Positions 1,998-63,629 of a stretch of DNA of 64,000 nucleotides are shown piece by piece (position 1 is the first letter of the stretch; each line of letters starts with the position of its first letter). A model generated the notes under the pieces. It was not told where the DNA came from. It saw only the letters and a program-made list of their open reading frames with translations, and did no database searches. Source of the stretch: an uncultured archaeon (GTDB taxonomy: Archaea > EX4484-52 > LFW-46). The stretch is from contig CABMCT010000031.1 of the NCBI GenBank assembly GCA_902384675.1, forward strand, positions 3,425 to 67,424, in the 5' to 3' direction. A program made the translations under genes and the position numbers.

Positions 1998-2792
1998 ATG
2001 CTTTCTTCAAATCATGGCACACGAGTGCCAGGCTTTCCAGACCCGCGAGAGTCTGGAAAAGATAATGCGCGCTATTCCCGCCAGATTGCATTCAATAAAA
2101 TCGGCCAAAAAGGGCAGGAAAAGCTCTCCCGCGCAAAAGTCGCAATTGTGGGCATGGGAGGACTTGGCTCTGTAATTGCAATGATTCTTGCAAGGGCAGG
2201 AATAGGATATTTGCGCCTGATTGACCGGGATGTTGTCGAGCCGGACAATCTGCAGAGGCAGGTCCTATTCGACGAATCCGATATATGGGCGCCCAAAGCT
2301 CATGCATCCAAAAAAAGGCTATCTGCGATAAATTCAGGCATTAAAATCGATGCCATCTGCGGGGATTTGAACGGGAAGAACACAAAAAAACTGCTCTCAG
2401 GCGTTGACCTTATTCTTGACGGGACAGATAACATGGAAACCCGAGTGATAATAAATGAATTTGCCGTCAAAAACAAAATTCCGTTCATTTACGGCGCAGC
2501 AGTCCGCGATAAGGGAATGGCAACATTAATAATTCCGGGGAAAACACCGTGCCTCAAATGCATCTTCAGGCGGGTTTCAGGCTTAGGAATGGATTGCGGC
2601 AGCTTCGGGGTTCTTCCAACAGCTGCAGGACTCATCGGAACAGTAGAGGCCAACGAAGCAATAAAACTCATCTGCGGTTTTGGAAAAACGCTTCAAGGAT
2701 TGCTCTTTTATCTGGATTTGTCGGAAAACAGGTTTGATGTTTTGGCTATTAAAAAGGATAGAAAATGCGGGATTTGCGGGATATGTAGATAA
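1998..2792 (+). CDS. ThiF/MoeB/HesA-family E1-like adenylyltransferase with C-terminal CxxC pairs
   Basis: VAIVGMGGLGSVIAMILARAGIGYLRLIDRDVVEPDNLQRQ Rossmann/E1 signature; CLKC...CGIC Zn motif. Confidence 0.85.
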   Translation: MLSSNHGTRVPGFPDPRESGKDNARYSRQIAFNKIGQKGQEKLSRAKVAIVGMGGLGSVIAMILARAGIGYLRLIDRDVVEPDNLQRQVLFDESDIWAPKAHASKKRLSAINSGIKIDAICGDLNGKNTKKLLSGVDLILDGTDNMETRVIINEFAVKNKIPFIYGAAVRDKGMATLIIPGKTPCLKCIFRRVSGLGMDCGSFGVLPTAAGLIGTVEANEAIKLICGFGKTLQGLLFYLDLSENRFDVLAIKKDRKCGICGICR

Positions 2793-5223: not shown

Positions 5224-5324
5224 TTTTAATCAACTCCATTTTCATTGGATTAAAAAGCTTTCTGCGTTAGCAGAATGATGTATTTCACCTAATTTATTGA
5301 GATTTAACGCATGATTGAAAAATA

Positions 5325-5882
5325 TTAGCACCATGTTTGCGAGGATGAAGGTATATCGCATTTGTATGGGACCTCGGTTCCCAAATCTGTTACTATTTTT
5401 ATTGTTTTAGGATTGCCTACCGTAACAAAATTCTCCTGTGTGTTTACGGTGGTCACACCCCCTGGCGAAAGACCGCCATCCGGATTATAAGTGGGGATAG
5501 TTGTTACCGGGACCCCATTAGCATACAATGAAAATTTTGATACATCTGCAAATGCATATGAACCAGTATTTCTAAGTATAAATGAAATTTTTCCAGCGTC
5601 ATTCCACATCGAATCTATGTTTAGTTTTGCGCCGGTTCTCGCCTGATTTTTATTGAGGTCGTCTTGTGCATTGATCTGGATGCTATTTTGCGTATTCATA
5701 ATCCATTTGTAAGCTAATCCCGCTGCTGCAACCGTCATCATGAGCAGCAGGACAGTTGCAACGATAGCAGTTACACCTTTTTTCGGGACACGCCCGAAAA
5801 TCCGTTCGCTCCACTCTCGGCTTTCCAAGCTTAGCTTGGAAAAGCTTGAAAATCTATGATGATTTTCATGATTTCTTTCCAT
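5325..5882 (-). CDS. Pilin-like paralog; annotated N-terminal 33 aa are read through a dispersed-repeat copy, true start uncertain
   Basis: KKGVTAIVATVLLLMMTVAAAGLAY is identical in core to the 4756 gene; upstream MERNHENHHRFSSFSKLSLESREWSERIFGRVP is encoded by repeat-element DNA (5790-5882). Confidence 0.6.
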   Translation of the reverse strand: MERNHENHHRFSSFSKLSLESREWSERIFGRVPKKGVTAIVATVLLLMMTVAAAGLAYKWIMNTQNSIQINAQDDLNKNQARTGAKLNIDSMWNDAGKISFILRNTGSYAFADVSKFSLYANGVPVTTIPTYNPDGGLSPGGVTTVNTQENFVTVGNPKTIKIVTDLGTEVPYKCDIPSSSQTWC

Positions 5883-8624: not shown

Positions 8625-9324
8625 ACGCTTCTATAACGACAAGCTCTTCCCAATCAAACTTCTGCCGCGCAATTGCTTTTGCTGAGAAACCGATTTTTTT
8701 GAAGTGCAGCAGTGTTTTTTCATAGCGCGAAAGCGAGGATTCCAACAAGATTATTTTTCCGTGCGGATTCAGGAATTTTGGCGCGTCTTTTAAGAATCGC
8801 TCAATTATTTGCCTTCCGTCTTTTCCGCCATCAAGCGCGATGTTTTTGTAAATCGGTTCATCAGGCAGATACGGCGGATTGAAGACAATCAAATCAAATT
8901 TCCTCTCACTTGCGTTCGAGGCTTTTGAGGATTTTCCAGCTTGTCTGGAAATCATGCCTTGCGGCAAGCTTTTCAACCTTCGGTTGAAAAAGCCGAGAGT
9001 GTAACGAACGGACTCCCTATTCCTCAAAATTCCTTTTACATTCGCGAATAAATCGCTTTTGTGAAATTCTGCATTTTTTATTTTGTTCTGTTCGGCATTT
9101 TCTTTTGCGCACTTTACAGCTTCCGGGTTTATATCAACTGCAAGAACATGTTTCGCTTTCTTCGCTAAAACCAGCGCGATAATTCCGCTTCCTGTTCCGA
9201 TTTCCAAAACATTTTTCCCTTCTAAATTCAAATTCTGGAGCGCAGAAATCAGGAGAAATGTGTCTTCGGCGGGCTCGTAGACGTTTCCTGAAGTTTGGAT
9301 TTGAAAACCGTAAAGTCCGAGCAT
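8611..9324 (-). CDS. HemK/PrmC-like SAM-dependent methyltransferase (NPPY) with an in-frame ~37-aa repeat-derived insertion
   Basis: VLEIGTGSGIIAL motif I and LIVFNPPY motif IV. Segment ESVRYTLGFFNRRLKSLPQGMISRQAGKSSKASNASE between them is encoded by a dispersed-repeat copy (8915-9015). Confidence 0.8.
   Translation of the reverse strand: MLGLYGFQIQTSGNVYEPAEDTFLLISALQNLNLEGKNVLEIGTGSGIIALVLAKKAKHVLAVDINPEAVKCAKENAEQNKIKNAEFHKSDLFANVKGILRNRESVRYTLGFFNRRLKSLPQGMISRQAGKSSKASNASERKFDLIVFNPPYLPDEPIYKNIALDGGKDGRQIIERFLKDAPKFLNPHGKIILLESSLSRYEKTLLHFKKIGFSAKAIARQKFDWEELVVIEAFKPV
8915..9015. mobile_element. MITE-like dispersed hairpin repeat copy inside the hemK-like CDS
   Basis: 84 bp identical to 32819-32902; contains hairpins gcttttcaacc/ggttgaaaagc and ttccag/ctggaa. 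Confidence 0.7.
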
Positions 9325-9451
9325 ACAATCTCCTAGAATATCATGCCTTGCGGCAAGCTTTTCAATCCAGTAAATCCTTTCACTTCGTTCTAGGCTTTTT
9401 AGCCCAAAGTGAAAGGTGAATGGCTAAAAATGGATAATGATTGAAAATGAG

Positions 9452-9724
9452 CGAGCCTGGAGGGATCTTCAGCGGCTTCGGATAGTATTCTGTGACATCA
9501 ACTTCGTTGATGTCGCTCGTTTTTCTCTTTCTACCCGGATTTCAAACCATTCACCAACCGCTTTGGGTTGGAAAGCTTACCAATCGCAATTGGCATGATT
9601 TGTCTATCTCTTTTTGGAAAAAAGAGAAAGAAACCGTTTTTGAACCCCCGACCCCTGGCTTAGAAGGCTTACACGGAATATTTGCATAATCCACAGTGCT
9701 CTATCCAAGCTGAGCTACAGGCCC
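9452..9724 (-). tRNA. tRNA-Arg(UCU) with two non-canonical introns (in anticodon stem ~29/30, 25 nt; in T-loop ~59/60, ~172 nt); CCA not encoded
   Basis: Exon1 GGGCCTGTAGCTCAGCTTGGATAGAGCACTG (9724-9694); exon2 GCCTTCTAAGCCAGGGGTCGGGGGTTCAAA (9668-9639), anticodon loop CTTCTAA; exon3 TCCCTCCAGGCTCG (9465-9452). Exon3 completes the T-stem (GGGGG/CCCTC) and a 7-bp acceptor stem against GGGCCTG. Confidence 0.5.
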
Positions 9725-10893: not shown

Positions 10894-11313
10894 AATTCAT
10901 TCCTTATTTTCGAGGTGGACCAATCCTCATTGTGAGTCCAAGTCGTTCTTCATTCTTTTGCTTAATCCTCAAAACCTCCGGTATCGCAGAAATCCCAAAA
11001 AATTGCAATTTCAGAAGTCAACAGTTACCGATGAACATTTGTCTTTTTGATGTCTTTTGTTTATTGTAGTTGTTTTACCAGCTGCAATAAGACGCCTGCA
11101 AGAAATGTTGTGTTTTGAGGAACATTAAGCCCGAATATATCTGTAGAACTAACCATAGCCAACACCTATCCCTTTTTTAGAATTGTAATTACATTTATAA
11201 ATCCGCGCGACCAACAACTAGATATATTGGCGCTTTTTTTCTGTAAATTTTGCAAAAATGTTTCTTTTCAATTGTTTGATTGCTTTATAGAAATGCCATT
11301 AAAGTTACTCTTT

Positions 11314-18490: not shown

Positions 18491-18601
18491 TTTTCGCTCG
18501 CAGCATAGTTTGATGACGAAAAATCCGTCGCGACACCTTATGAACCATTGATTGTGTCGCTTTCGGCTTTTAAATCCAATGAATATGGGGAATGATTTAA
18601 A

Positions 18602-20752
18602 ATGGCAGATTATATCCGTATAGATGTCGCGTCCGAAATAAAAAAGCTCGTTCCTGTTCTTGGAAAAGAGAACGCCCTTAAAATCGAGCAGGCGTACCTG
18701 TTGGGCGACGAGGAGATGAAAAAGCGCGTAATCGAGATGCTTGATTCTGTAAAAGCTGCTGCGTATGCCGACGAAAGCCTCAAAAATGCGGTTCTTCTTG
18801 AGGCGCCTTCGCGCGAAACAGCATCATGCGGGGATATTTTTGCAGGCACGGTGCTTTATGGCCAGAAAAGGCTCTACCCGTTCCTTCTTGACCGAAATAT
18901 GTTCCTCACGCATCTCGGGATTTTTGGCTCCTCAGGCTACGGGAAAACCAATGTGGTCCATAATCTTGTCCGCGAATTATCCGAAAAAAGCGTCCCTGTT
19001 CTTATTTTCGACTTCTCAAAGCGGAATTACCGCGACCTCATCAATATCCCGGAATTAAAGGAGCGCGTACAGATTTTCACTATCGGAAGAAACGCCTCGC
19101 CTTTTAAATTCAACCCGCTTTACCCGCCGGAAGGTGTTGAAATATCGCAGTGGATTAAGGAATTCGCAGAGATTTTCGACCATGCATACTGGCTTTTGGG
19201 CGGAGGACGGCATATTATTCTTAAAGTGCTTGATAAGGTTTACAAAAATCCTAAACCCTTCGATTACCCCCAATTACGGGCCATAAAATACGTATTGGAC
19301 GAGCTTGAAAGCGACAAGAATTCCGCAAGGGAGAGGAACTGGATTGTGACTGCGCAAAGGCCCCTGGAATCGCTGTGCTTCCGCGAAACAGGGCAGATAT
19401 TTGATACGAATAAAGGCATTCTTCCCTCGACTTTCTTTGAGGGGCAGAAAATCACAATCCTTGAGCTTGATTCCCTTACCACGAACGACAAGACTTTTTT
19501 CATCGAAATCATGCTGCAGTGGATACGCGACTGGCTTATCGTGAAGAACGCAAAGGAAAAGCTGTCAGGTGTTATTGTTCTTGAGGAGGCGCACCATGTC
19601 CTGAACCGCGAAAAATCGAAAAAAATGGGTGCTGAAAGCGTTATTGACCTTGTCTTTCGTGAGGTGCGAGAGCTTGGCATGGGCATAATCTATGTCGACC
19701 AGCATCCGTCCCTTATCAGCTATCCTGCTCTTGGGAACACGAGCACGCACATCTACATGAACCTGGGGCTTGATACGCAATATTCCTCTGATATTCAGGA
19801 TGCGTGCAGCATGTTGGGCCTGGATTACCGGAGCGAGGGCAAATACCTGCGCCAGCTGCCTGTAGGGGACGGCTTTCTGCTTTGCAGGAGATTGAGCTTT
19901 CCGCACCCGTTTTTAATACAGTTCCCCCTTGCAAAAATAGACAAGGGCTCAGTAACCGATGATATTGTAAAAAGCATTGCGCCAAAGCTTCCGGATGACG
20001 AAATCACAGTTCCTGCGGTCCATGGCCTTCATAGAAAAAAAGAAATCTCTGAGACCCATGAAACTCCTGCGGTGCATATTCAGGAAGTGGCACAGGAAGC
20101 ACCAGTACCCCCGCAAATTCCATTACCTCCTCCTGAAATCGAGAGGCAGCAAAGCAATAATATCATAAAACACAATCTTCCTGAAAGCTGCCTGAAGATT
20201 CTGCGCGTCCTGGGCCGCTTTGATGCATCTGCAACTTCTGAAATTTACAAGGGAATTTCAATGTCGGGCAGCACATTCAAGCAGAATGCGGACCGGCTAG
20301 TCAGCGAAGGGCTCTTGGGCGCAAGGACTGCAAAAGTGTATCGCCAGACATCGATTTTCTACTTCCTTACCAATAAAGGCGCAGCGCTTTTCTCAGGCAC
20401 TTTCAGCATGCTGCACGAGGATATCAATGCGGAGGAATTTTACAACGCTGCAGAGCGGCTTTTTAAGGGCGAGGGATGGGCTGTTGACCGGAGCAAAAGC
20501 ATCTGGACGCTTTTGCGAAAAGACAAGCAGGTGAACGTGATTCTTGTATCGGGGCTTGAGAGGGCCCAGCTTTCCGGCCAGGTTGCGAATGAAAGTGCTT
20601 ATTTTGTTGCTGCGACAGAGCATATCAAGAATGCAATAATCCAGATGGCAGCAAAGCGGGTGAGCGAGACCGGAAAGCCGTTTATTCTGTCTGTTTCTTC
20701 GTTTGAGGCGCTCCATAAGGGCGAGAAATTCAGAAAACTGGCGTTTGAATAA
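18602..20752 (+). CDS. HerA/FtsK/VirB4-superfamily ATPase with ~240-aa C-terminal extension (predicted wHTH plus unknown domain)
   Basis: Walker A GIFGSSGYGKTNVV; HerA-type Walker B VIVLEEAHHV; IIYVDQHPS (QRP-like) motif; C-terminal LPESCLKILRVLGRF...EIYKGISMSGSTFKQNADRLVSEGLL helix-turn-helix. Confidence 0.8.
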   Translation: MADYIRIDVASEIKKLVPVLGKENALKIEQAYLLGDEEMKKRVIEMLDSVKAAAYADESLKNAVLLEAPSRETASCGDIFAGTVLYGQKRLYPFLLDRNMFLTHLGIFGSSGYGKTNVVHNLVRELSEKSVPVLIFDFSKRNYRDLINIPELKERVQIFTIGRNASPFKFNPLYPPEGVEISQWIKEFAEIFDHAYWLLGGGRHIILKVLDKVYKNPKPFDYPQLRAIKYVLDELESDKNSARERNWIVTAQRPLESLCFRETGQIFDTNKGILPSTFFEGQKITILELDSLTTNDKTFFIEIMLQWIRDWLIVKNAKEKLSGVIVLEEAHHVLNREKSKKMGAESVIDLVFREVRELGMGIIYVDQHPSLISYPALGNTSTHIYMNLGLDTQYSSDIQDACSMLGLDYRSEGKYLRQLPVGDGFLLCRRLSFPHPFLIQFPLAKIDKGSVTDDIVKSIAPKLPDDEITVPAVHGLHRKKEISETHETPAVHIQEVAQEAPVPPQIPLPPPEIERQQSNNIIKHNLPESCLKILRVLGRFDASATSEIYKGISMSGSTFKQNADRLVSEGLLGARTAKVYRQTSIFYFLTNKGAALFSGTFSMLHEDINAEEFYNAAERLFKGEGWAVDRSKSIWTLLRKDKQVNVILVSGLERAQLSGQVANESAYFVAATEHIKNAIIQMAAKRVSETGKPFILSVSSFEALHKGEKFRKLAFE

Positions 20753-24520: not shown

Positions 24521-26737
24521 TTAGTATTTATACTTTTCTTCCTCCCACTCCTTCGCTTTCCCTTTCTCGTGCGCGGCTTTGGAGAAAACGCCGTGGTCGA
24601 CCTCAGGCACCAATATCATGCCTTTTAGCGGGTCAAGGCCATGCTCCCGTATTGCGTGATGCTGCGCTGCCCAGAGAGTCTCGTCAATCCCGTAGAATCT
24701 TGGCGGAAGGTCGTTTGGCTTTGTCTCTTTCTGCAGCTCGGCAACCATGTTCCTGAATGCAATGGCACTCTGGTCAATGCCAAAAGAGCCCATTTCCCAG
24801 ATAAAATACGCGTCCTTCATGCCCTTCTGGCGCAGGCTGAAAAGCCAGCCGTAGAGGACAAACATATCGTGCGACATGATATAAATCGGGGAATGGGCGC
24901 CTATTATCGGCCTTGGGGCGTTTATGTGCATCATTTTTATGTACTTGGCATCGCCATCCTTGAGGCTTGCTATATCCTGATCTACCCTTACAAAGTTTAC
25001 CGTGAGGTGCTCGAAGTCCATGGTGTAGCCGGTTATTTCGCCTTTATCCAGATGCTTGATAAGCGTGACATGATCATGCGCCGACATTACCCTTAATTCA
25101 CCCTCCTGGCCTTCGGGCGGCATTGCGGTTTCAATGAAAATCATCATTTTTGCGTCTTTTGTGTAGCTGTAGACTGATTCGTCTTTGAGGTGCTTGTATT
25201 CCGGGAATTCCGCAGCCATCCCCCATAAATCCCCTGAGACAAACAAATGGCCTTCGATGTATTTGCATGCGACTGCTGTGATGAGCTTTTTGACAAGGTC
25301 TTCTATAACTGTTTTATCTTCTTTACTATGCTCTTTATGTTTTTCGGAAGGTTCCACTTCTTCTCCAAGAAGCTCTTCTTCTTTAAAAATATTTTTGTCA
25401 TATTTTGATTTTCCTTTATCAGCGCATTTAATGATTATATCAGGGTCGTAGTCGCCTACGATATCCGTCCATAGAGGGTCGCGTGTCCAGTACATGAATT
25501 TTGCAATAACGCGATATGCAACTTGTTCCTCGCATTCGGAGCCTTTCGTCTTCCAGAAATCGAAAACTTTGTCAAAGTCGGTAGTCTTGAGGTAATACAA
25601 AACATGGTCATATATCTGATATATTTTGTATATTTTTGAAAGCTCGCCTAATGCATCTTCAAGCGTTTTTCCATTGTTCAATTCACGGATCATCAGTTCG
25701 TCCTTTTCACGTTCAACAGCGTAATCAAAAGACAGGTATTTTTCTGGCTTTCCGCTGTTGATTTCAGCGATTACTGCATTTGACGCAGAAGCTTCTCTGA
25801 AAAGCTGGTTATATTGCGGATTATTTCTTAGATTCTGGTCGACAGCTAACTCCAAGTCCTCTCCTTTAACTCCTCGGGATATCAGATATTTCCTAAGTTG
25901 TTCTCTTAATACATTCATTTGCGATTGGGCTTGAGTAAATATCTTTGTGTACCTTTCCAGCATGATTTTTTTAACCTTCTCATCCCATATTTTATCTCTG
26001 AGAGCGGTGTGTCTTTTTCCAGCCTCTTTTGCTCCGTCACTGAAGTTATCAAATGTTTCCATGAATGTTAGAACACCGACATCCCCGGAAAGCCCCATTA
26101 CATGAAAAAGCACTTTTGTAAACTTTGCTTTAAACCACTCGCGCATGCTTTGTCCTTTTGGCAACGTGATTTTTTTCCCTGTCTTTGGGTCTTTAAATTC
26201 GCCTTTATCAACAGCGTCGATCCATTGCCCTAAATTCGTTCCGTCAAACGAGTTCTGCTGTACCGGCGGCTCCTGATGCCCTACAGTAAACGTGACATGC
26301 GGCCTTATTCGCGAGGAAGTGTGGAAAAGAAAGAACTTTGAGCCTATGATTTCTTTTGATGAATAAGCTCCCTTGCGCAGGATTTCATGCATTTCCTTCC
26401 ATTCAAAGGCATTTGCTATGCAGAGGTCGACTTTTACAGGCAGGTGCAGGCCGACTTCCATTTTTTGGACGTCCTTGACGTGCATTATCAGTTCCTTGAC
26501 GTGGGGCTCGTACATTTCAGAAAGCGCTTCATAATCTATTTCGGTAAAATCAAAGCCAAGGCGCGCTGCTTTTACTATCTTTCTCGCCAAGCCCATGTTT
26601 ATCAGGCGCTCTTCTCCCTGTGCAACACTGGCAAAACCCGGGCTTGCTCCAAGAATGTAGCCGACAGGGTGGTTTTTGGCATCCCATCTGCCGTTTATGT
26701 GCGGCTGTTTCTTTTGTTCGTGGCCATGCTCGGACAT
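24521..26737 (-). CDS. Large hypothetical protein (738 aa from MSEHGHEQ; the ORF's upstream 69 codons look non-coding)
   Basis: ggaga SD 9 nt before ATG at 26737; no family recognised by eye. Confidence 0.6.
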   Translation of the reverse strand: MSEHGHEQKKQPHINGRWDAKNHPVGYILGASPGFASVAQGEERLINMGLARKIVKAARLGFDFTEIDYEALSEMYEPHVKELIMHVKDVQKMEVGLHLPVKVDLCIANAFEWKEMHEILRKGAYSSKEIIGSKFFLFHTSSRIRPHVTFTVGHQEPPVQQNSFDGTNLGQWIDAVDKGEFKDPKTGKKITLPKGQSMREWFKAKFTKVLFHVMGLSGDVGVLTFMETFDNFSDGAKEAGKRHTALRDKIWDEKVKKIMLERYTKIFTQAQSQMNVLREQLRKYLISRGVKGEDLELAVDQNLRNNPQYNQLFREASASNAVIAEINSGKPEKYLSFDYAVEREKDELMIRELNNGKTLEDALGELSKIYKIYQIYDHVLYYLKTTDFDKVFDFWKTKGSECEEQVAYRVIAKFMYWTRDPLWTDIVGDYDPDIIIKCADKGKSKYDKNIFKEEELLGEEVEPSEKHKEHSKEDKTVIEDLVKKLITAVACKYIEGHLFVSGDLWGMAAEFPEYKHLKDESVYSYTKDAKMMIFIETAMPPEGQEGELRVMSAHDHVTLIKHLDKGEITGYTMDFEHLTVNFVRVDQDIASLKDGDAKYIKMMHINAPRPIIGAHSPIYIMSHDMFVLYGWLFSLRQKGMKDAYFIWEMGSFGIDQSAIAFRNMVAELQKETKPNDLPPRFYGIDETLWAAQHHAIREHGLDPLKGMILVPEVDHGVFSKAAHEKGKAKEWEEEKYKY

Positions 26738-27275
26738 TTTTAAACATCTCCTTCTTCTTTGGTTTAAAAAGCTTGGAAACTGCATTTGCACCTTGGTATG
26801 CAAAGCTTGGAAATTCTTGCGAATTTCCATGAGTTTCCATGATTTCAAATCATTCCTCAATCTACTTGGATTTGAATCATCTCGTTCGCATAGCGAACTC
26901 GAAGCTTTTGGGAACCCTAAATCCCAAAAAGCTTGAAAGCGCAACTTATGCGCAAGCTTTCATGATGACAATCTATTGGTGAAGAGGGTATATAAAATCT
27001 GATATGATTTTTAAGCCGCGCTTCCACAACTTAAAATCCGTTCGCTATCGCTCTCGGCTTTTCAGACTTTGTCTGAAAAAGCGTGAAACTCGAATAAGCC
27101 GCAAGGAAGTTTCATGATTTTTATATACTCCTGTTTCCAATAATATTCAGTAATCTAATTTGGTGATATTATCGGAATTCTTGGCAAGCTCAAATCCAGT
27201 TTCGGTGGGGGGAAAAGCGATATTGACTCGAAAATAGACTCGGCATTCTCAAACCCCAACATTTCCGGAAAACTT

Positions 27276-28071: not shown

Positions 28072-29653
28072 ATGCGAGTTCCAAGCTTTCGAACCCAAAT
28101 TGGTTGCGAATGGTTCGAAATGGGAATAAACCTCACAATTTCTGAAGAACTAGCGGGATTAGATGAAATATCGGGCTTTTCGCCCAATACATAATCCAAA
28201 TGGCGAAAAGTCTGTTCGCTTGCTCTCAGCTTTACAGCCCAAAGCATCTGCGAATGGCTGTAAATCTTCTCACTTCGCCTTATTAACCATTAATAGCTCC
28301 GTTCGAGGCTCTTCATTCCAAAGAAGTTGGCGAATGAATGAAGATGGTGTGGAGAGTAAGCCCCCTTTTGTTTGGCCCGTCTCTGTCTCTGCTTAATTTG
28401 CAGGACTGGTGGGCGTTATCGCATTAGACTCCTCTCACTTTCGTGAAAGACGCGAATTGCTTCGCGCGCGTCGTTCGACTTGCACGCATGGACGGTCATG
28501 AAAATCTTTGCAGATTTTCAAGCTTTCCAAGTTCGTAAGAACCTGGAAATCGTTTCATCCTTATTCCGGAAACGTCGAATACTCTCATTCTTAACCGGAG
28601 GAGGTATCGTTTCTAATCCGTTGCCGCGCCTCCCGGCGCCCTGGTTTTCCAGGATTAAATGCCTTGCGGCATCCGTGGGGGGACTTTCCTCAATTCCTTA
28701 AAGCGCCATATCACAAGCAGGCGCTCTGAACGCCAACCTATGACAAAACACCCAAAAACCACAGCAACCCTTCCACACCACGCCATTATTACTTGCTCAA
28801 CTATTTAAATTTTAACTCCCCTTTCTTCTCCCAATTTTTCCAGATTTTGAGGCTGCCACGAATCCGAATCGCGCATGTCTTTCGTGTCTTTTGTTGTCTT
28901 TCGCCTGTCTTTCGCTTCGTTTTATAGGGCTTTGTTTACGCCAGTTGATATTCACGAGTGAATAAATTAGTAAAGAGACCTGAGTAGCGCAAATTCTTTT
29001 CAAAAATGGGTGCAAAAGTGTTTTACGTCGGATTTCTCAGGAGAAATGGTCGAAGAGCTGGCAGGAAAGTGGCTGAAAGTGCGGCTGTTGATAGAAGATG
29101 CACTACAGCTGAGCGAGAAAAGTCATGAAAATCTCTATGCAATGTGCAGATTTTCAAGCTTTTCAACCCAATGCAGTTGGCGAATGGTTGAAAATGAGAC
29201 TTTTGACCTTGTAAATCCTTTCGAGTGGCGCTCTAGGCCTTTCAATCTTCGGTTGAAAACTCAAGCTTGACCATAATCATATAGAAGATACAAGAAGGCA
29301 ATGGGCGAGATAGTGTGTGTGGCTAAGCCGGGAGGATATGTGCTGATAACCGTAGTCAATCCGCCTAAAGAGAGCGAATGTATGAAGGGATGAGAAAGGC
29401 AATCTGCGCTATAAAGCGAGCCTTTTTAACGATTCGCGAGGAAAGCCAGTATTTATGAAGCTTTACAGACGCTCGAGAGAAGAATATATGCGCGCCATGC
29501 AAGCCGCGGGCCTGGAAGTGCTTGAAGCAGTCGCGCCAACGCTTGAAGAGCTGGGGAAGTTGGGCCGCTGAAGGAGAAAGATGCGAAGAAGTTTGACAAA
29601 GACGCAATGAATGTGAGAGTTAATTTGGTGATTTTGGGAAGAAAATGCTTTAA

Positions 29654-32057: not shown

Positions 32058-32612
32058 TCATACACCGGGATGCGCAGGAGGTGGCTTTGGTGCCTCGGTT
32101 TCGCTTTTCCCCTCACCCTTCGTAGCAAACCCAATAACCGCGATGATGAATAAAAACACTAGCCCGATTGTTATGTCGTCGCTGCTTAATCCTAAGGAAA
32201 TGCTTCCTCCGGAAGCCTGGGAAAAAACCACTGCTGCGAACAATACCAGGGCGATGAAGATTATCGAGTACCATTCCTTGTTCTTTTCTGTAATTATTGT
32301 TTTATCAAACCCAAGAACCCCGATGAAAATTATCAATATAACCAGCGTTGCAAGTATCTGCGCCATCGAGCCGAAAAGAGTGCTGTAATAAGCCGAAATT
32401 CCGCCAACAGGAGTGAAATTGACTATGAAAAAAGCAAGAACAGCCGCGATTATTGCGTTTACCTGTTTGGCGCTTTTGTCTTTTTCATCACCGAAAATTG
32501 CCACCTTTGTCAGTACTCCAAGAATCACTGCAAAGAACAAAAGCCATGGCAATACGAAGTCGTAGAATCCAAGACGCTGCAAATTTCCCACAATACTTGT
32601 TAAATCGACCAT
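32058..32612 (-). CDS. Paralogous small polytopic membrane protein, copy 2
   Basis: First 30 aa MVDLTSIVGNLQRLGFYDFVLPWLLFFAVI are identical to copy 3; 110-bp near-identical DNA tract (32358-32467) shared with copy 3. Confidence 0.6.
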   Translation of the reverse strand: MVDLTSIVGNLQRLGFYDFVLPWLLFFAVILGVLTKVAIFGDEKDKSAKQVNAIIAAVLAFFIVNFTPVGGISAYYSTLFGSMAQILATLVILIIFIGVLGFDKTIITEKNKEWYSIIFIALVLFAAVVFSQASGGSISLGLSSDDITIGLVFLFIIAVIGFATKGEGKSETEAPKPPPAHPGV

Positions 32613-32818
32613 TTTTTATCATTCTCCATATTTATTGGATAAAAAAGCCTGGAAACCGCAGTTTCCATGATTTTTTATCATTCTCCATTTTTAACCATTC
32701 ACAATTATTATTGGGTTGAAAAGCTTGACACGAAGCCATCTCGATAAATCTCGAAGGCTTCCAGCTTGAAAAGCTGGAGGTGTCATGATTTTACTTGGAT
32801 AAAAATCATCTCGTTTTA

Positions 32819-32920
32819 CTCGAGGCTTTTGAGGATTTTCCAGCTTGTCTGGAAATCATGCCTTGCGGCAAGCTTTTCAACCTTCGGTTGAAAAAGCCGA
32901 GAGCGCAAGCGAACGGATTA
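32819..32920. mobile_element. MITE-like dispersed hairpin repeat copy (intergenic), twin of the copy in hemK-like gene
   Basis: 84 bp identical to 8915-8998. Confidence 0.7.
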
Positions 32921-32961
32921 ACCTGATGCTTCGGGTTGGAAAGATTAATTATCCTTCCTCC

Positions 32962-35711: not shown

Positions 35712-35991
35712 TTTTGACCATCTCCATTAATTATTTTCCTTTCGCTCCGGGCTAAATCTGCGAAAATCTTCGGATTTTCGCAGATTTCGGAAATACCTCT
35801 TGGTATTTCCTGTATTTCCGAAATGAGGAAATGCTCGCGCATTTCGGAAACCTTGAAAAGCTTTGCTTTTCATGGAAGCCGAGAGTTCCGCGCACAATGG
35901 TTAGTAGGGCGAAACGAAAGGATTTTTAATCATTCACTAATGCATTGGGTTAAAACAAGGTATATTAAAACCAAAATATTAAAAAGATATT

Positions 35992-38041: not shown

Positions 38042-38605
38042 ATGCCGAAAGATTTCCACCATTTCAAGGGAAAGGGATTATCGCGCTCCGAGAAGCTGCA
38101 GCGCAAAGTGACCGAACTGATTCTTGAAAGCAAGATTCCTGATGAGGCGCGCGAAAATTCAAAAATATGGGAACTGAAGCATTCTGCAGGGTGCTGCCAG
38201 ATTGGAAGAATCCTGGCACAGAAAAGAGATCTTGATGTCGAGCTTTCGGAAATCATATGCACACTTCATGATATCTATGCAATTATTGAAGGAAAGTACA
38301 AGGAGCACGCAAAAAGAGGTGCGCAAATCGCCAAAAAGATGCTCATCAATTCTGGAGACTTTAAGCCAGAGGAAATAGAGATTATCACCGAAGCAATAGC
38401 GCAGCATAGCGAAAAAGAGGTATTTACCAATAAGCCTTTTGTTGAGCTGATAAAGGATGTCGATGCATTTGATTGCTCATTGTATGAGAACTCTGAGGCG
38501 TATTATCTTTTGCACAAACCTAAAGAGGTTTACGAGCAGTACGCAAAGCGAATCAAAAATGTACGAAAGGAACTTGATCTAAAAGCGAATAATGTCTTTA
38601 GGTGA
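38042..38605 (+). CDS. HD-domain phosphohydrolase-like protein
   Basis: H...HD spacing (LKHSAG...ICTLHDIYAI). Confidence 0.55.
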   Translation: MPKDFHHFKGKGLSRSEKLQRKVTELILESKIPDEARENSKIWELKHSAGCCQIGRILAQKRDLDVELSEIICTLHDIYAIIEGKYKEHAKRGAQIAKKMLINSGDFKPEEIEIITEAIAQHSEKEVFTNKPFVELIKDVDAFDCSLYENSEAYYLLHKPKEVYEQYAKRIKNVRKELDLKANNVFR

Positions 38606-40937
38606 TATGTTGAAAAATATTTTGTGGCTGGATGAACTCGATAAAAGTTTTGTTGCTCTTGCAGGAAGAAAAGGCGCAAATCTTGGAGAACTCAAAAAAC
38701 CGGGATTTCCGGTTCCTGACGGGTTCGTGATTTCTACCGGTGTTTATAAGGCGATTATCAAGAATTCCGGCTTGTCAAAAAAGATTCAGGCGCTTTTATC
38801 AAACTCGGACATGCAGGATATAAGGATGCTTAATGAAGTATCTGATAAAATACAACCGTTAATATTTGCCGCAGAGTTTCCGGAAAGTATCAAAAAAGAA
38901 ATACGTGAGGCTTATAAAAGAATCGGCGGTCTGGTTGCTGTCCGAAGTTCTGCAACCGCAGAGGATTTAGAATGCTCATCTTTTGCAGGACAGTATGCCA
39001 CGTTCCTGAACGTGACTGAGGGTACTCTTATCGAATCTGTTAAAAAGTGCATTGCATCTTTATTCACACCGCGTGCGATTTCCTATAGAGAGCAAAATCG
39101 TATAGGTAGTAAGGATATTTCCATTGCAGTTATTGTGCAAAGAATGGTTGATTCAAAGAAGGCAGGTGTTGCTTTTTCTATAAATCCAGTAACAGGCAAC
39201 AAAGGCGAAACAGTAATTGAGGCTGTATCCGGTTTAGGCACGCAGGTTGTCGGCGGGGAGGTTATCCCGGACAATTATGTAGTTGCAAAAGATGCTGGTA
39301 AAATAAAGGAATGCCACACTGCCAAAGAGCCTACTCTTAGCGATTCCGAGATTATCTTGCTTTCTGAAAGTATAAGGAAAATCGAGGCGCACCAGAATGC
39401 ACCACAGGATATCGAATGGGCTATTGATAATTCAGGCAAGATACATATTCTGCAAGCGCGTTCTGTAACCGCAGTAAGTCCGAAGAAATCCGTATGGAAG
39501 AAAATCATGGCACGTGAGTATGGTGTGCAGTATACTGAAATGTCCTTGCGCTCTTTGAGCCCTGAGTGCAGTTTTATAATTGATGCGCCTTTTTACGAAC
39601 ACGTGTATGTGCCCGAGGATAAGAACGAGGCTCTTTATGTGGATGAGGCGAAATGGAATGCCTTTGTTTCTTCTCTGAAAAAGACGTATTTGGAGAACCC
39701 GAAGAACTACGAGAAATTTGAAAAGCAATTCATGGAAACCGGTAGCAGTTATGTAAAAACTGCAGAAAAAATATCCGAATCTGCACTTAATGGCAAAACA
39801 AATTCAGAGTTAAAAAAGGATTATCTTGCATATCAGAAAGCGTCTCTCAGATACGCGCCGTTTATCTGGGTACAGTTTTTGATTAATAATTTTTTTGCAG
39901 AAAAAGCCAGGGAAATAATTGGCAGTAGATTGGGCAGCAGCGAAAACCTGCCTGCTTTGTATGATATTGCTCTGAGGCCTGATAAAAAAGCTGCAGCATT
40001 CCAACTAAGTAAAGCGGCTTCTGAATGGGAAAAATTAGATGATGCTGGAAAAACTGAAGTATATGAAAAATTCAAATGGATGCCTTGTATGGATATTCAC
40101 AATCAGCCATGGACAAAGGAAGAATTCTTTTTGCATGTATCGGAATTCAAAAAGCCTGAAAAAAAGCAGGTCTTATCTTACGAAGCATTGATAAAGCAAC
40201 TTAATCCGTCAAAGAAAGAAAAAGAGGTTCTGGACATCGCAAAAAGGCTTGCATACCTGAAAGACTTAAAGGACGATTTCAGGAGGCAGGGAGTATTTTA
40301 CGGGCAGATACTATTCGGGAATATCGCAAACAGAATGGGCATAACACTGGAGGCAGCTTCATATTTATTAGAGTCGGAGATTATTGATTTTCTTGATAGC
40401 GGCAAAGCAGCACAGAAAAGCATTATTGACGAGCGGAAAAAGGGCTTTGTAATCTACTTCCAATGCTCGAAAGAGCTTGGAAGGCTTGAAAATCAGAATC
40501 ATATGCAAGAAGATTTTCATGATTACACACCTCAAAAAACCATATCATGCAAGGCAGGGCGCGATATAACATCTGTAATGAATCTGCTTGGGATAATCGC
40601 AGCTGAAAAATTCTCTGAAGAGATAAAAGGGACACCTGCATCGCTTGGCAATGCGAAAGGCTGTGTGAGAATTGTAAAAGGAGTTTCGGATTTGGGTAAA
40701 GTTATGAAGGGAGATATTATTGTAGCGATAACCACGCATCCTGATTATGTGCCTGCTATGCAAAGGGTTGTTGCAATAGTGACAGATGAAGGCGGCATTA
40801 CTTCGCATGCAGCGATAGTAGCGCGCGAATTAGGGTTGCCCTGCGTGGTCGGCACAAGGCATGCCACAAAGTCGCTGAAGGACGGAGACATAGTGGAAGT
40901 TGACGCGAATTTAGGGGTTGTGAGAAAGATATTGTGA
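38592..40937 (+). CDS. PEP-utilising-enzyme-family phosphotransferase (PPDK-N ATP-grasp plus C-terminal phosphohistidine swivel domain; no TIM-barrel PEP domain)
   Basis: N-terminal LDELDKSFVALAGRKGANLGEL; C-terminal GGITSHAAIVARELGLPCVVG at the extreme end of the 781-aa protein. Confidence 0.85.
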   Translation: MSLGDMLKNILWLDELDKSFVALAGRKGANLGELKKPGFPVPDGFVISTGVYKAIIKNSGLSKKIQALLSNSDMQDIRMLNEVSDKIQPLIFAAEFPESIKKEIREAYKRIGGLVAVRSSATAEDLECSSFAGQYATFLNVTEGTLIESVKKCIASLFTPRAISYREQNRIGSKDISIAVIVQRMVDSKKAGVAFSINPVTGNKGETVIEAVSGLGTQVVGGEVIPDNYVVAKDAGKIKECHTAKEPTLSDSEIILLSESIRKIEAHQNAPQDIEWAIDNSGKIHILQARSVTAVSPKKSVWKKIMAREYGVQYTEMSLRSLSPECSFIIDAPFYEHVYVPEDKNEALYVDEAKWNAFVSSLKKTYLENPKNYEKFEKQFMETGSSYVKTAEKISESALNGKTNSELKKDYLAYQKASLRYAPFIWVQFLINNFFAEKAREIIGSRLGSSENLPALYDIALRPDKKAAAFQLSKAASEWEKLDDAGKTEVYEKFKWMPCMDIHNQPWTKEEFFLHVSEFKKPEKKQVLSYEALIKQLNPSKKEKEVLDIAKRLAYLKDLKDDFRRQGVFYGQILFGNIANRMGITLEAASYLLESEIIDFLDSGKAAQKSIIDERKKGFVIYFQCSKELGRLENQNHMQEDFHDYTPQKTISCKAGRDITSVMNLLGIIAAEKFSEEIKGTPASLGNAKGCVRIVKGVSDLGKVMKGDIIVAITTHPDYVPAMQRVVAIVTDEGGITSHAAIVARELGLPCVVGTRHATKSLKDGDIVEVDANLGVVRKIL

Positions 40938-48066: not shown

Positions 48067-49194
48067 TTATCTCATATGGTTCGGAGAGCCATTAGCCCAG
48101 ACCCTATTTATAGATTTGCAGATACGGCTAATTTCTTCGTCATTTAGCGACGGGTAAATCGGTACTGAAATTGCACGGCTCATGGCGCGCTCTGCGTTTG
48201 GGAATTCACCGCATTTACCGAAGTATTTGTGCAGCGGCCTGAAAACCGGCTTTGCGCAATTGACGCCGCATTTCTTCATCGCTTCAATGTATTTGTCCGG
48301 ATTATCGACTTCGACAACATACCTGAAACATATGCCATCCCGATTCGTTCTGCCATCCATACCGATGCGCTCAAACGCATCATCATAAATTTTTGCGATT
48401 TCATTTCTTCGCCTGATGAAAGAGTCAAGCTGCCTTAACTGGCTTCTTCCAAGAGCTGCGGCAAAGTCGGCCATTTCATAATTATAAGAAACGGCGTAGC
48501 CTTCCCGCTCGTCATATTTCGTCAAATCCGCAAATCTGTCCAGTAACTGCGGCGAGTTTGCCAGAGCCATTCCTCCATGGCCGGTTGTCAGGACTTTTGT
48601 TGCATAAAACGAAAATATGGACAAGTCCCCGAGGCTGCCGAGCTTTTTTCCTTTATACTCCGCACCTATTGCCTGCGCGCAGTCTTCGATGAGCGGCACA
48701 TCTATTTTTAGCAGCCTGTCAAGATTTGCCGGGATGCCGAACATGTGCGGCACAATTATTGCTTTTGTTTTTTTTGATAATTTTTCCTCAACCGATTCAG
48801 GGCTGATATTATATCCGCCGGGCTCTATGTCTGCAAGTACCGGCGTTGCTCCGGTGTAATTTACTGCGCTAAGCACCGATGCGCAAACATAAGTCGGTAG
48901 CACAACCTCATCGCCGGATTTTATACCAAGAGCCTTAAGCGCAAGATGCAGGGCATTGGTGCCCGAGTTTGCGGCGACACCCATGCGGACACCTATAAAG
49001 CTACTCATCTCTTTTTCAAACAAGCCAACCTCTTTGCGGGATGCAATTTGTCCGCTAAGCAGATTGCGGGCTACAGAATCCATGTCTCTCTTGCTGATTG
49101 TCGGCCTTGAGTGCGGAATTATCATTTGATCACTTCGAATAGTCGAAGACTTTCGAAGGCTTGAAAATCTGTGCGATTGCCTGAAGATTTTCAT
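48067..49194 (-). CDS. DegT/DnrJ/EryC1-family PLP-dependent sugar aminotransferase
   Basis: IPHSRPTIS start region, FSFYATKVLTTGHGG (PLP-Lys region); probable true start MIIPHSRP at 49125, upstream 23 codons being repeat-derived. Confidence 0.9.
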   Translation of the reverse strand: MKIFRQSHRFSSLRKSSTIRSDQMIIPHSRPTISKRDMDSVARNLLSGQIASRKEVGLFEKEMSSFIGVRMGVAANSGTNALHLALKALGIKSGDEVVLPTYVCASVLSAVNYTGATPVLADIEPGGYNISPESVEEKLSKKTKAIIVPHMFGIPANLDRLLKIDVPLIEDCAQAIGAEYKGKKLGSLGDLSIFSFYATKVLTTGHGGMALANSPQLLDRFADLTKYDEREGYAVSYNYEMADFAAALGRSQLRQLDSFIRRRNEIAKIYDDAFERIGMDGRTNRDGICFRYVVEVDNPDKYIEAMKKCGVNCAKPVFRPLHKYFGKCGEFPNAERAMSRAISVPIYPSLNDEEISRICKSINRVWANGSPNHMR

Positions 49195-49218
49195 GACCTC
49201 CTAATATCCTTTGGCTCT

Positions 49219-52083: not shown

Positions 52084-52932
52084 TTAATCGCTGCGCATAA
52101 GATCCATGACGTCGTTTTTGTTTCCGCCAGCAGACCTTAGCATTTCCAGTGCCCATGAAATATCGCCTACTTTTGAAGCATGGTGCGCATCGGAGCCGAT
52201 GCTGAATTTTACGCCATGGAACCTGCATATCCTGATAAACTCAGGCGGAGGCACGCAGTAGTTCGTGTTTATTTCAACAGCCTTCCCGTGTGCACCAATA
52301 AAGCTGGCAAGATTGTGCATTTCGGTTTCATCAGGCATCGTGATGTTGAACTTATGCAATAGGTCAAAAGGATGGCCTATGATATCGACTGATTTGTTCC
52401 TGCATATCGCCCTGAGCGCCTCAAGGTATACTTCCTTTGTTTTATGCGGGTCCAGCTTCTGTATAGTCGTGTCCCCTTCCATTATGTTCAGGCCAGGAAT
52501 CCTGTGAAGAGAGCAGACAATAAGTTCTGCACGATTTTCTGCGGATTTTGAAATGTCCAATGTTCCGTTCATATCAAGAAGCTTGGTTTCAAATCCGAGA
52601 ATCACTGCGGAGCCGCTGCTTTTTCTTCCATTTTCTACAGCTTCGATGTATTTGTCAACCCATGGAGAGCCAGCCCTTATATGTTCGGTTATTGCAATCT
52701 TTGCAAGGCCCTTTTCATTTGCAGCCCGAATCATATCCTGGACGCTTGAGTCCCCGTCGGTAAAATTCGTGTGCATATGAAAATCGGATTTTATTTCCAA
52801 CGCTCGAAAGCGCTGTTGGATCCGTTCGCTTGCGCTCTCGGCTTTCCAACCCAAAGCAGTTGGTGAATGGTTGCAAAAGGTTTGAAACTCGTGCCTTTTG
52901 CAAGCGAGTTTCATGATCTTTATTTCTTCCAT
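52084..52932 (-). CDS. PHP-domain phosphoesterase
   Basis: HMHTNFTDGDSSVQDMIRAANEKGLAKIAITEH; N-terminal ~40 aa repeat-derived. Confidence 0.75.
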   Translation of the reverse strand: MEEIKIMKLACKRHEFQTFCNHSPTALGWKAESASERIQQRFRALEIKSDFHMHTNFTDGDSSVQDMIRAANEKGLAKIAITEHIRAGSPWVDKYIEAVENGRKSSGSAVILGFETKLLDMNGTLDISKSAENRAELIVCSLHRIPGLNIMEGDTTIQKLDPHKTKEVYLEALRAICRNKSVDIIGHPFDLLHKFNITMPDETEMHNLASFIGAHGKAVEINTNYCVPPPEFIRICRFHGVKFSIGSDAHHASKVGDISWALEMLRSAGGNKNDVMDLMRSD

Positions 52933-54889: not shown

Positions 54890-55075
54890 TCACATCACCT
54901 GCAGCGCGTATTTACCCGGCACTGCAATTCCCGCCTTTTTCGCGATTTCGGAATCAGGGCTGAATACGACAATTACTCCTTTCCAGTTGGTTGTCAGGTC
55001 GTTTGATTTGCATACGTCGCATTCGTTTCCTTCCTCAATCAGGCGTTTACAAACCCTGCATGCGCGTTCATTCAT
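54890..55075 (-). CDS. spt4: Transcription elongation factor Spt4 / RNAP subunit E''
   Basis: ACRVCKRLIEEGNECDVCKSNDLTTNWKGVIVVFSPDSEIAKKAGIAVPGKYALQV. Confidence 0.8.
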   Translation of the reverse strand: MNERACRVCKRLIEEGNECDVCKSNDLTTNWKGVIVVFSPDSEIAKKAGIAVPGKYALQVM

Positions 55076-55273
55076 TTTTAACCATCTCCAATAATCATAA
55101 TTTTCATTTGCTCTGGGTTAAAAAGCCGAGAGTTCCGCACATAATGGTTAGTAAGGCGGAACGAACGGATTTCCAACAATTAACATATTGCTTTGGGTTG
55201 GAAAGCTTGATATGTTAATATCATGATTTTTCGCCGTTAACCTAATGCATTAGGCGAAAATATCTTTTTCACC

Positions 55274-55882
55274 TTATTTCTCTTTTTTGCCCTTTTCCTT
55301 GGGCTTTTCCTCTTCTCCTGCTTTCTTGGCCTTTTTTTCCTTCTCTTTTCTTTCGGCTTCTATCCAGTCAAGAGAACCCAGACCATCCTGGCGCATTGTG
55401 ATTGTGATTTTGTTCACTTCCTTTTTCTCAAGGCTTATTGCGGTTATTCGCGCGCGGACCGTATCCCCGATTTTAAGCACTTTTGCGGTTTTTTTGCCGA
55501 CTATGACATTTGCTTTCGGGTCGCGGCTTACGTAATCATTCATGACCTGCGAAATGTGGCACATCCCGTCAATCGGCCCGAATCTTACAAATACGCCGAA
55601 ATCCGTTATGTCTATAACCTGCCCCTCGATGATTTCATGAAGCTTCGGGACAAAGAGCATTGCCTCGAATTTTGCGGAATAAAATATGCCCGGGTCGTCT
55701 GCTTTTATTGTGCCTCCCTTGACATCTGATGCCTGCGTTACTGCAAGCACAACGCCTACATCGGGAATTATGTGGTTCTCGTATTTCTGCACAAGGCTTT
55801 TCAGTACCACGTCTTCTTTTTTGCCGCCGATATTTTCCGGCGGGACTCTTATTTCGTCTTCAAAATTTGCCATTTCGAACAT
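55274..55882 (-). CDS. rpoE: DNA-directed RNA polymerase subunit E' (Rpb7-like, S1 domain)
   Basis: 202 aa; Rpb7 N-domain plus S1 fold (GQVIDITDFGVFVRFGPIDGMCHISQV); Lys/Glu tail. Confidence 0.9.
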   Translation of the reverse strand: MFEMANFEDEIRVPPENIGGKKEDVVLKSLVQKYENHIIPDVGVVLAVTQASDVKGGTIKADDPGIFYSAKFEAMLFVPKLHEIIEGQVIDITDFGVFVRFGPIDGMCHISQVMNDYVSRDPKANVIVGKKTAKVLKIGDTVRARITAISLEKKEVNKITITMRQDGLGSLDWIEAERKEKEKKAKKAGEEEKPKEKGKKEK

Positions 55883-56130
55883 TTTTTATCATTCTCCTTC
55901 TTCTTTAGATAAAAAAGCTTAAAATCCGTAGATTTTATGATTTTTAGCCATCTCCATTTTTAACCATTAGCCCCTTACTTGGGCTAAAAAGCTTGCCACG
56001 TTGTGGCAAGATTAATTCACCATTTACTATAAGAATAAAACCGTACGGGATTCTGGCTCAGGTTGTCTCTAATTAGATGCTGCTTATTCTTTATAAATCT
56101 AATCGGGAGCCAAAACCCCCTAAAATTTCT

Positions 56131-63439: not shown

Positions 63440-63629
63440 CTCGTTTCGCTCGCGCTCCACTCGAAGCTTTTGAGGATTTTGGGACATAGGGTTCCCGAAA
63501 GCTTGACGCAACGCGTCATGACACCCTTCCCTCAAAATTTGTTCTTTTTGCATGAGATTATAGAGGCGGGAAAATATAAAAACCATTGCCAATTAATAAA
63601 TATATAAACTTATAACACCGTTATATATT

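Follow-up and report, generated by a model that had tools for sequence, protein, structure and literature searches.

Short palindromic repeats that lie in frame in many unrelated, often essential genes as well as between genes are described from Rickettsia as Rickettsia palindromic elements (RPEs; Ogata et al. 2000, as summarized in PMC10969869 and PMC3733652). Repetitive extragenic palindromes (REPs) and the mosaics built from them (BIMEs) resemble the repeats reported below in being tagged, imperfect palindromes of 20–40 nt that occur singly, as dimers or as mosaic arrays in both orientations, mostly between co-transcribed genes and occasionally in frame within genes, and the survey that describes them (PMC3733652) contains no report from archaea. 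A high density of MITEs, which are miniature transposable elements with inverted repeats, has been reported for some DPANN genomes, with ~89% of archaeal MITEs being intergenic (PMC11602168). Here we describe a family of modular hairpin repeats in a 64,000-nt stretch (the window, meaning the whole of the DNA analyzed) of contig CABMCT010000031.1 from an uncultured archaeon. We consider it probable that this genome has been colonized by short, non-autonomous modular hairpin repeats that insert at tolerated sites, that are translated where they lie within coding sequences and that, in one variant (the B hairpin), serve as a ribosome-binding site (RBS).

The repeats are composed of small hairpin modules. 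The A module has the form TCATG-stem-loop-stem-CA(A/G)GC, the B module has the form (A/G)GC-TTTTnnnnC-loop-GnnnnAAAA, often with TG after it, and a third recurring module is CCGAGAG..GAACGG. Modules are chained in either orientation, forming elements of 48 nt (two hairpins) to ~130 nt as well as arrays with a maximum length of 350 nt. In folding, the repeat regions give a series of stem-loops that are independent of one another (z-scores of -2 to -4). Tagged hairpins of the form CA-TG[stem]-loop-[stem]CA-(A/G)GC were identified 15 times in the window versus a mean of 1.29 and a maximum of 4 in 100 dinucleotide-preserving shuffles of the same sequence. Identical tags enclose nine different stem sequences, and the copies at 8916-9004 and 32820-32908, each of 89 nt, are 98% identical. 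The repeats differ from REPs in their tags (GTAG/CGTC in REPs versus CATG / CA(A/G)GC and (A/G)GC-TTTT here), in that their stems are far more variable within one genome, and in that no RAYT-type tyrosine transposase was seen in the sequence examined here. One discrete two-hairpin unit, TCATGAAAATC..GATTTTCAAGC-CTTYGAA..TTCRAAGT, is also present on the metagenome contigs Ga0172368 and Ga0172371, and a scan of the contig collection with AAGCCGAGAG..GCGAACGGAT returned a single related contig (L003) along with ten chance bacterial matches. An earlier note on this DNA had drawn attention to repeat copies at the 5' ends of several genes, and all of the open reading frames (ORFs) and peptides listed there (those of DegT, a pilin paralog, PHP, the Nob1-like leader and two mini-ORFs) are present where it placed them, the mini-ORFs being found at 28497 and 29124. 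The motif HRFSS, common to several of the N-termini, is encoded by CAY-AGA-TTT-TCA-AGC, which is made up of the 3' arm of the hairpin TCATGAAAATC-loop-GATTTTCAAGC and its CAAGC tag.

Syntenic DNA was compared from four relatives, L001/L002, L069, L070 and L071. The host of the window is probably a DPANN-related archaeon: its ABCE1 shares 88, 85 and 83% identity with proteins on three contigs from metagenome-assembled genomes (MAGs) or assemblies, one of them labelled Nanoarchaeota, and the next best named matches, at 60–65%, are labelled DPANN or Nanohaloarchaea. These labels give no support to an origin in Methanosarcinales or ANME, which had also been considered. The sites occupied in the window at the genes for DegT, PHP, a methyltransferase, ThiF, pilin paralogs 1 and 2 and a HerA-like protein are empty in relatives. 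The reverse was also found, with sites filled in a relative and empty in the window (L001 15757-15830 and the L070 cassette 10861-10974), and copies are scarcer or missing in more distant relatives. As such, we regard the repeats as lineage-specific insertions because of the empty sites on syntenic contigs of four relatives, and the proposal of the earlier note that the element is mobile or insertional is borne out in both directions. The left flank of many two-hairpin copies is purine-rich, with GG just before TCATG, and other flanks end in AAA or GA.

Two copies are located far inside protein-coding genes, a situation that the earlier note had not raised. In the HemK/Mtq2-like NPPY methyltransferase (coding sequence 8611-9324) a multi-hairpin element of 129 nt, or 43 codons (8902..9030, minus strand), lies between ..SDLFANVK and KFDLIVFNPPY, that is, between strand beta-3 and the NPPY strand, and is absent in L069, L070 and L071. 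Its core (8916-9004) is the sequence noted above as 98% identical to the intergenic copy 32820-32908. The inserted residues are also missing from PDB homologues, including human N6AMT1, against which the window protein has 57 residues between two aligned blocks versus 17 in the solved chain; a single-sequence AlphaFold model of the methyltransferase had a pLDDT of 41 and no usable fold. The second case is a two-hairpin element (40457..40522, plus strand) lying antisense and in frame in the coding sequence of a phosphoenolpyruvate (PEP)-utilising enzyme (38592-40937), where it encodes FQCSKELGRLENQNHMQEDFHD within a region that has no solved homologue in the PDB alignment. On the related metagenome contig L035 (Ga0172368_10000308), a gene for valyl-tRNA synthetase (1-2391, antisense to the locus) has an in-frame two-hairpin copy, encoding FQSPKEVGKLENPSHEQKDFHD, near the C-terminal domain of the protein. 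The similarity between the PEP-utilising enzyme and this synthetase is confined to the 27-aa element-coded segment (E=3e-6).

A further copy is found within a structural RNA. The archaeal RNase P RNA gene (28347..28714, minus strand; Rfam model match of 60.6 bits versus a gathering score of 84, E 5.8e-16) has a stretch of 64 nt at a point where only seven loop positions are present in the model. This stretch holds the hairpin 28497-28523, and the element copy is situated in a hairpin loop. At the gathering score, Rfam identified only two tRNAs in the whole window and missed the RNase P RNA. The mini-ORF listed at 28493 is therefore not a protein start, but corresponds to the opposite strand of the element copy within the RNase P RNA gene.

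Three other genes have copies a few codons after their start codons. In the PHP phosphoesterase (ORF 52084-52932, minus strand; N-terminus MEEIKIMKLACKRHEFQTF...) a four-hairpin element of 123 nt, or 41 codons (52795..52917, minus strand), follows codon 6, and the site is empty in L001, in which the start reads MEAISIKSDFHMH, with ATG GAA GCG ATA AGC ATA AAG TCT GAT TTT CAC (MEAISIKSDFH) as the DNA sequence. The window protein accordingly reads MEEIKI, then 40-41 inserted codons, then IKSDFHMH, and is 282 aa in length versus 241 aa in L001. The conserved ATG (52932) overlaps the PIG-L stop codon in both the window and L001. From the insert to the essential HxH motif the sequence contains no Met. 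In pilin paralog 2 (ORF 5325-5882, minus strand; N-terminus MERNHENHHRFSSFSKLSLESREWSERIFGRVP-KKGVTAIV) an element of ~90-93 nt, or 30-31 codons (5782..5871, minus strand), is placed after codon 3 by comparison with L069. The L069 protein starts MRKKGVT after TCGGTGCC..ATC, and in the window TTCGGGGTTAAAGA-ATG-GAA-AGA-AA is followed by an element of ~90 nt and then AAAAGGTGTAACT, giving MER, the insert and KKGVT. Based on this comparison the native ATG is at 5882 and the element thus falls within the class III signal peptide, in its N-region. TIGR02537 matches residues 34-58, and no in-frame Met was found between the element and this conserved domain. By inference, the element-bearing N-region would be removed in prepilin processing and leave the mature pilin unaffected. 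In the ThiF/UbaA-like gene (1998-2792) a two-hairpin element of 48 nt, or 16 codons (2012..2059, plus strand), follows codon 4-5 and is absent in L069 and L070, with the start reading MLSSKDSLRYSRQ in L069 versus MLSS, 16 aa and KDNARYSRQ in the window. Judging from the orthologue alignments, the conserved ATG of PHP, pilin-2 and ThiF/UbaA is the upstream one, and the element lies inside the coding sequence a few codons later.

A consistent pattern is apparent among the copies inside genes. The four dated in-gene inserts are 48, ~90-93, 123 and 129 nt in length, all multiples of three and all stop-free, and the dated non-coding inserts are 57, 67, ~74 and 114 nt, of which 67 and ~74 are not multiples of three and 57 and 114 are. 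Purifying selection, acting on inserts that are translated, would give rise to the pattern observed within genes.

The copies at the genes for DegT and Nob1 lie ahead of the probable start codons. The DegT/DnrJ aminotransferase is encoded from the conserved M24 (MIIPHSRP; 48067..49125, minus strand), as indicated by profiles and homologues, and the ORF 48067-49194 on the minus strand has the N-terminus MKIFRQSHRFSSLRKSSTIRSDQ-MIIPHSRP. A two-hairpin element of ~67 nt, TCATGAAAATC..GATTTTCAAGC plus CTTCGAA..TTCGAAG (49128..49194, minus strand), is situated between the Shine-Dalgarno (SD) sequence AGGAGG and TGATCAAATG, at a site empty in L001 and L002. The spacer between SD and ATG is 26 nt in L001/L002 (GGGAGGGATTGA-ATG) versus 93 nt in the window, and the terminal ATG of the element gives rise to a spurious 23-codon in-frame extension. 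We assign M24 as very probably the true start, and the annotated 375 aa as an over-extension, because the family profiles begin at residues 24-26 and homologue coverage is 90-94%, with an 82%-identical orthologue beginning at M24; because the ATG of the element is only 2 nt past GGAGG and inside a stem; and because the right end of the element together with its flank restores an SD-like sequence, CGAAGTGATC, at native spacing. Orthologues starting at M24 are 343-353 aa. A model in which ATG represents a target-site duplication at DegT was considered and rejected, as only 2 nt would then separate the native SD from the start, which is not the arrangement in L001. For the Nob1/PIN gene (ORF 62969-63592, minus strand) 51 stop-free codons precede MIYILDS, and an element-containing leader, open and in frame (63440..63553, minus strand), precedes M52 (ATG 63439), where the profiles start. 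A start at the internal Met, M52, is plausible. The first ATG of the leader (63553) is ~27 nt 3' of the TATA-like TTTATATT, which would permit a leaderless mRNA translated through the element, and we regard this as possible. In short copies 1-2 of the three frames are commonly open, one frame of the left terminus being TCA-TGA, and an open in-frame leader like that of DegT is therefore unremarkable by chance.

The earlier note had proposed that the element either rewires translation starts and N-termini or makes gene callers over-extend them, with the true starts probably being the conserved internal Mets, and it had named alignment to orthologues as a check. Both outcomes are represented: over-extension for DegT and probably for Nob1 (annotated at 375 and 205 aa, respectively), and predicted alteration of the N-termini for PHP, pilin-2 and ThiF/UbaA. 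In the alignments, homology of DegT begins at M24, in agreement with the profiles, but for the other three the conserved ATG lies 5' of the element, and PHP and pilin-2 have no internal Met to serve as a start. The effect on annotation is also confirmed, since the NCBI record of the 73,346-bp contig, whose entries (VVB60206.1 and others) are identical to the window proteins, includes element-coded residues in all of these proteins.

A second aspect that the earlier note had not raised is the presence of hairpins with an SD sequence in the loop exactly at seven real start codons. A set of 25 B hairpins with perfect stems and loops of 12-35 nt was selected from the window and related contigs, and 10 of these had an SD-like loop (GGAG, GAGG, AGGA or GGTG in its 3' part). 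An ATG directly follows the hairpin in all 10 of the SD-loop copies, and in nine of them a long ORF starts there, the genes being pilin-1, a 738-aa protein, a membrane paralog, Rpo7, Spt4, the L001 Spt4 orthologue and genes on L021, L047 and L048. Among the 15 B hairpins without an SD-like loop only one is at the ATG of a long ORF, that of the HerA-like gene (loop ..ATGGGGAAT), and the association between an SD-like loop and a long-ORF ATG is significant (Fisher p ~5e-5). The start-associated copies also have A/T-only 5' arms, and other copies have G/C there.

Several of these sites can be compared with relatives. At pilin paralog 1 a 57-nt cassette that ends in an SD-in-loop hairpin (5226..5282, minus strand) lies between the old SD (TAGGTGAAATA) and the ATG and is absent in L069, L070 and L071; in relatives the gene has a plain SD, AGGTGAAGAT-ATG. 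At the HerA-like gene, whose ATG is where a B-type hairpin (18565..18604, plus strand) ends, L069 has a plain GAGGT SD, with GAGGTCAATACT-ATG at the relatives' start. At Rpo7 (ATG 55882) a four-hairpin cassette ends at the start codon (55880..56015, minus strand) and shares 74% identity with an L070 cassette that lies at another gene. The latter is a 111-aa gene that has a plain SD, TAGGAGATTTT-ATG, in the window, one B hairpin in L071 and the four-hairpin cassette in L070. The array ending at the Spt4 ATG (55073..55212, minus strand) is orthologous in L001, and between the two its stem shows a compensatory A-T to G-C change (TTTTTAACC/GGTTAAAAA versus TTTTTGACC/GGTCAAAAA). Supported by these comparisons, the B hairpin is most likely a cassette that supplies the putative RBS of several unrelated genes.

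Two longer arrays also end at start codons. A hairpin array (26735..26944, minus strand) ends in an SD-in-loop hairpin at ATG 26737 of the 738-aa protein and forms an in-frame leader of 69 codons with no stop. Across the 207 nt of 26738-26944 (minus strand) the frame of the gene is stop-free and the other two frames have 5 and 3 stops, so the protein may start at 26737 or extend across the array. A 350-nt mosaic array (32610..32961, minus strand) lies between two tandem membrane-protein paralogs and ends in an SD-in-loop hairpin at ATG 32612. Separately, these paralogs (32058-32612 and 32962-33447, both on the minus strand) share 106 nt (32367-32472 / 33214-33319) that are 96% identical, which suggests recent duplication or gene conversion.

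Taken with the resemblance to RPEs as those are summarized in the sources cited, these observations led us to the following explanation. Copies would insert, or be copied, into new sites of a compact genome, and those that persist would be the least harmful ones, in the spacer that separates SD from ATG, within the first 3-6 codons, in protein surface loops or in the hairpin loop of RNase P RNA. Within coding sequences survival would be limited to copies with a length of 3n and no stop in the host frame, and these would be translated as peptide insertions of 16-43 aa in the manner of RPEs. In leader copies the terminal ATG of the element would create upstream in-frame ATGs, as at DegT and Nob1, that are taken by gene callers and are probably unused by the ribosome. 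Finally, the B variant, with its GGAG loop, A/T-only stem and position ending at the start codon, would have replaced the native SD of several unrelated genes. A bolder version holds that a mobile translation-initiation cassette lands, or is selected, at position -1 of start codons and takes over as RBS or leaderless promoter of unrelated genes, with its sister modules routinely translated in essential archaeal proteins at a density above that in Rickettsia; we offer this version tentatively, and would sooner expect parts of it to fail than all of it to hold.

A number of points weigh against this explanation. We infer mobility from the filled and empty sites only, because no transposase, terminal inverted repeat (TIR) or target-site duplication (TSD) was found. 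At the eight dated insertions the best TIR match was 4-8 of 12 bases, which is about background, and no TSD was identified beyond 0-3 nt of A-run microhomology at the junctions. No transposase Pfam families were present among the called genes of L001 and L069-L071 or the 16 window ORFs scanned (~135 kb). Given that the relatives' DNA is 70-89% identical, insert boundaries are uncertain by a few bases, and at sites with a single comparison (DegT and PHP) deletion in the relative is formally possible; insertion rather than deletion appears well polarized only for the methyltransferase, ThiF, pilin-1 and pilin-2, for which several relatives or distant homologues agree. Covariation among paralogous B copies would be expected partly by construction, as the set was chosen for perfect stems. 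In addition, when the element-coded peptides were joined into one chimeric query and compared with 5.8 billion proteins, only the window's own proteins were matched.

Among known systems, RPEs and REP/BIME arrays are the nearest analogues. As with RPEs in the accounts cited above, the repeats are dispersed, lineage-specific palindromes, in frame, stop-free and absent from orthologues, and the same element peptide occurs in unrelated proteins. Relative to those accounts they differ in having an archaeal rather than an alphaproteobacterial host and no sequence relation to RPEs; in being modular chains of small hairpins, 48-130 nt long, with variable stems and fixed tags, clustered at translation starts; in that one module appears to supply the SD and start context; and in density, since at least 5 in-gene copies in 64 kb considerably exceeds what is quoted for R. 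conorii, 44 copies per genome. Classical MITEs are likewise small, multicopy and present or absent between relatives, but they have TIRs and TSDs, neither of which was found here, and, in contrast to archaeal MITEs, many of the copies described here are in coding sequences or at start codons. The IS200/IS605-derived PATEs of Sulfolobus and haloarchaea are also small and non-autonomous with subterminal hairpins and no TIR or TSD; for the repeats here, no fixed tetra- or pentanucleotide target was established and no parent insertion sequence or TnpA was found in the sequence examined. The enterobacterial ERIC/RU and the Correia elements of Neisseria similarly carry ORFs, in-frame fusions or expression signals to neighbouring genes, but have TIRs, defined lengths, and promoters or RNase III/IHF sites. 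The MITE review PMC10969869 does not list, among the functions it covers, a start-codon-abutting repeat whose hairpin loop holds an SD, and no description of in-frame palindromic inserts in archaeal proteins was found in a literature search that was not exhaustive.

Among the other explanations, the one that fares best is that the hairpins are primarily host regulatory modules, acting on mRNA stability, operon polarity or translation, that spread by recombination because they are useful, with the coding copies being by-products. In agreement with it, the SD-in-loop hairpins keep the same register at seven start codons and SD-like loops are confined to gene starts, the Spt4 upstream copy is orthologous and kept with a compensatory change, and arrays occur between co-directional genes. 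However, copies are found in both orientations and inside proteins and RNase P RNA, where no such role is evident, close relatives use plain SDs at the same genes, and copy number differs sharply among relatives. We therefore view a primarily regulatory origin as rather unlikely, if a serious contender. It is less likely still that the B hairpin is a portable archaeal promoter acting at the DNA level only, with its 5' arm TTTTTAAT serving as a TATA box 31-33 nt before the ATG of a leaderless mRNA. The distance between TATA and ATG is as in the apparent leaderless promoters of ThiF, FEN1 and NifS (TATA at ~-30, ..ATATTATG; by eye), and the A/T-only 5' arms of start-associated copies, with G/C in others, would fit such a role. 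A promoter leaves the GGAG of the loop, which is specific to start-associated copies, unexplained, and several copies are within operon-like gene pairs.

We give little credence to the view that the start-proximal copies are an annotation artefact only, all lying in 5' untranslated regions (UTRs) of proteins that begin at internal Mets, with no protein altered. This does hold for DegT and is plausible for Nob1, and Di Nocera et al. (PMC3733652) caution that most N-terminal 'intragenic' REPs are misannotated extragenic copies. As a general explanation it is refuted by the orthologue alignments, because in PHP and pilin-2 no in-frame Met lies between element and domain and the conserved ATG is 5' of the element, as it is in ThiF, and because the copies in the methyltransferase and the PEP-utilising enzyme are far from any start. 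Least credible of all is removal of the elements from transcripts, in the manner of introns or by the bulge-helix-bulge (BHB) splicing endonuclease, leaving proteins and RNase P RNA free of them: mRNAs and non-tRNA RNAs can be substrates of the archaeal splicing endonuclease, and at the DegT copy pairing is possible between the left junction and the right one (GGUCAU with GUGAUC, judged by eye), but no BHB motif was identified and the dated in-gene copies are all 3n and stop-free in the host frame, which is expected only if they are translated. We continue to favor insertion of modular hairpin repeats that are tolerated within genes and have probably been recruited at starts.

Additional arrays were identified outside of genes. 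One of them (29122..29270, plus strand) is intergenic and corresponds to the second mini-ORF, reported at 29125; another, recognized by eye, lies 5' of a small ferredoxin-like gene (35712..35960, minus strand); and a third is intergenic and adjoins the methyltransferase start (9330..9630). On L066 (2470-2750) at least 7 consecutive AAGC-tagged hairpins are present 5' of a gene for a secreted or membrane protein, and the run is open in the frame of that protein for more than 100 codons. Beside the array at the methyltransferase gene, 9640-9725 (minus strand) is a tRNA-like sequence, GGGCCTGTAGCTCAGCTTGGATAGAGCA...GGGGGTTCAAA, that is 97% identical over 35 nt to L071 and was not called by ARAGORN or by Rfam (Rfam on 9560-9800 was empty); it may be an intron-containing, split or decayed tRNA. 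The methyltransferase of L069 is itself called with a 43-aa N-terminal over-extension.

Other features of the window were also apparent. TATA-like boxes ~30 nt before the ATG, with ..(G)ATATTATG at the start, are present at the ThiF, FEN1 and NifS-like genes (1965-2000, 35955-35994 and 63595-63633), which suggests that these are leaderless first genes and that operon-internal genes use SDs of the GGAGGTGATC type. For the ABCE1/RLI protein (6286-8052, minus strand) the NCBI record gives the name 'Trehalose/maltose import ATP-binding protein MalK'. At 44222-48013 (minus strand) is the gene for a 1263-aa secreted protein with two polysaccharide-deacetylase-type halves, a NTGGNTTGN low-complexity tract and an internal 112-nt repeat (45608-45719 / 47399-47510, 74%), and this gene adjoins a glycosylation cluster (DegT, GT2-GNAT, ATP-grasp, PHP and PIG-L).

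The immediate consequence of these results is for annotation, as at least 6 proteins in the public record of the contig carry wrong or unrecognized element-coded residues, the RNase P RNA falls below the Rfam gathering threshold because of its insert, and the same problems are to be expected in any MAG of the lineage. In-frame protein-coding palindromes have so far been essentially restricted to Rickettsia, and the repeats described here represent a case that arose independently in an archaeon. The dated insertions affect genes for a methyltransferase, a PHP phosphatase and a ubiquitin-like activating enzyme, the signal peptide of a pilin, and an aminoacyl-tRNA synthetase. The repeats thereby offer another system in which the tolerance and recruitment of selfish DNA by proteins can be studied, and the SD-in-loop hairpin, in replacing a native RBS, may reveal how translation starts are rebuilt after insertion. 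If the bolder version set out above were true, it would represent a new route by which selfish DNA rewires translation starts and creates protein novelty in reduced archaeal genomes.

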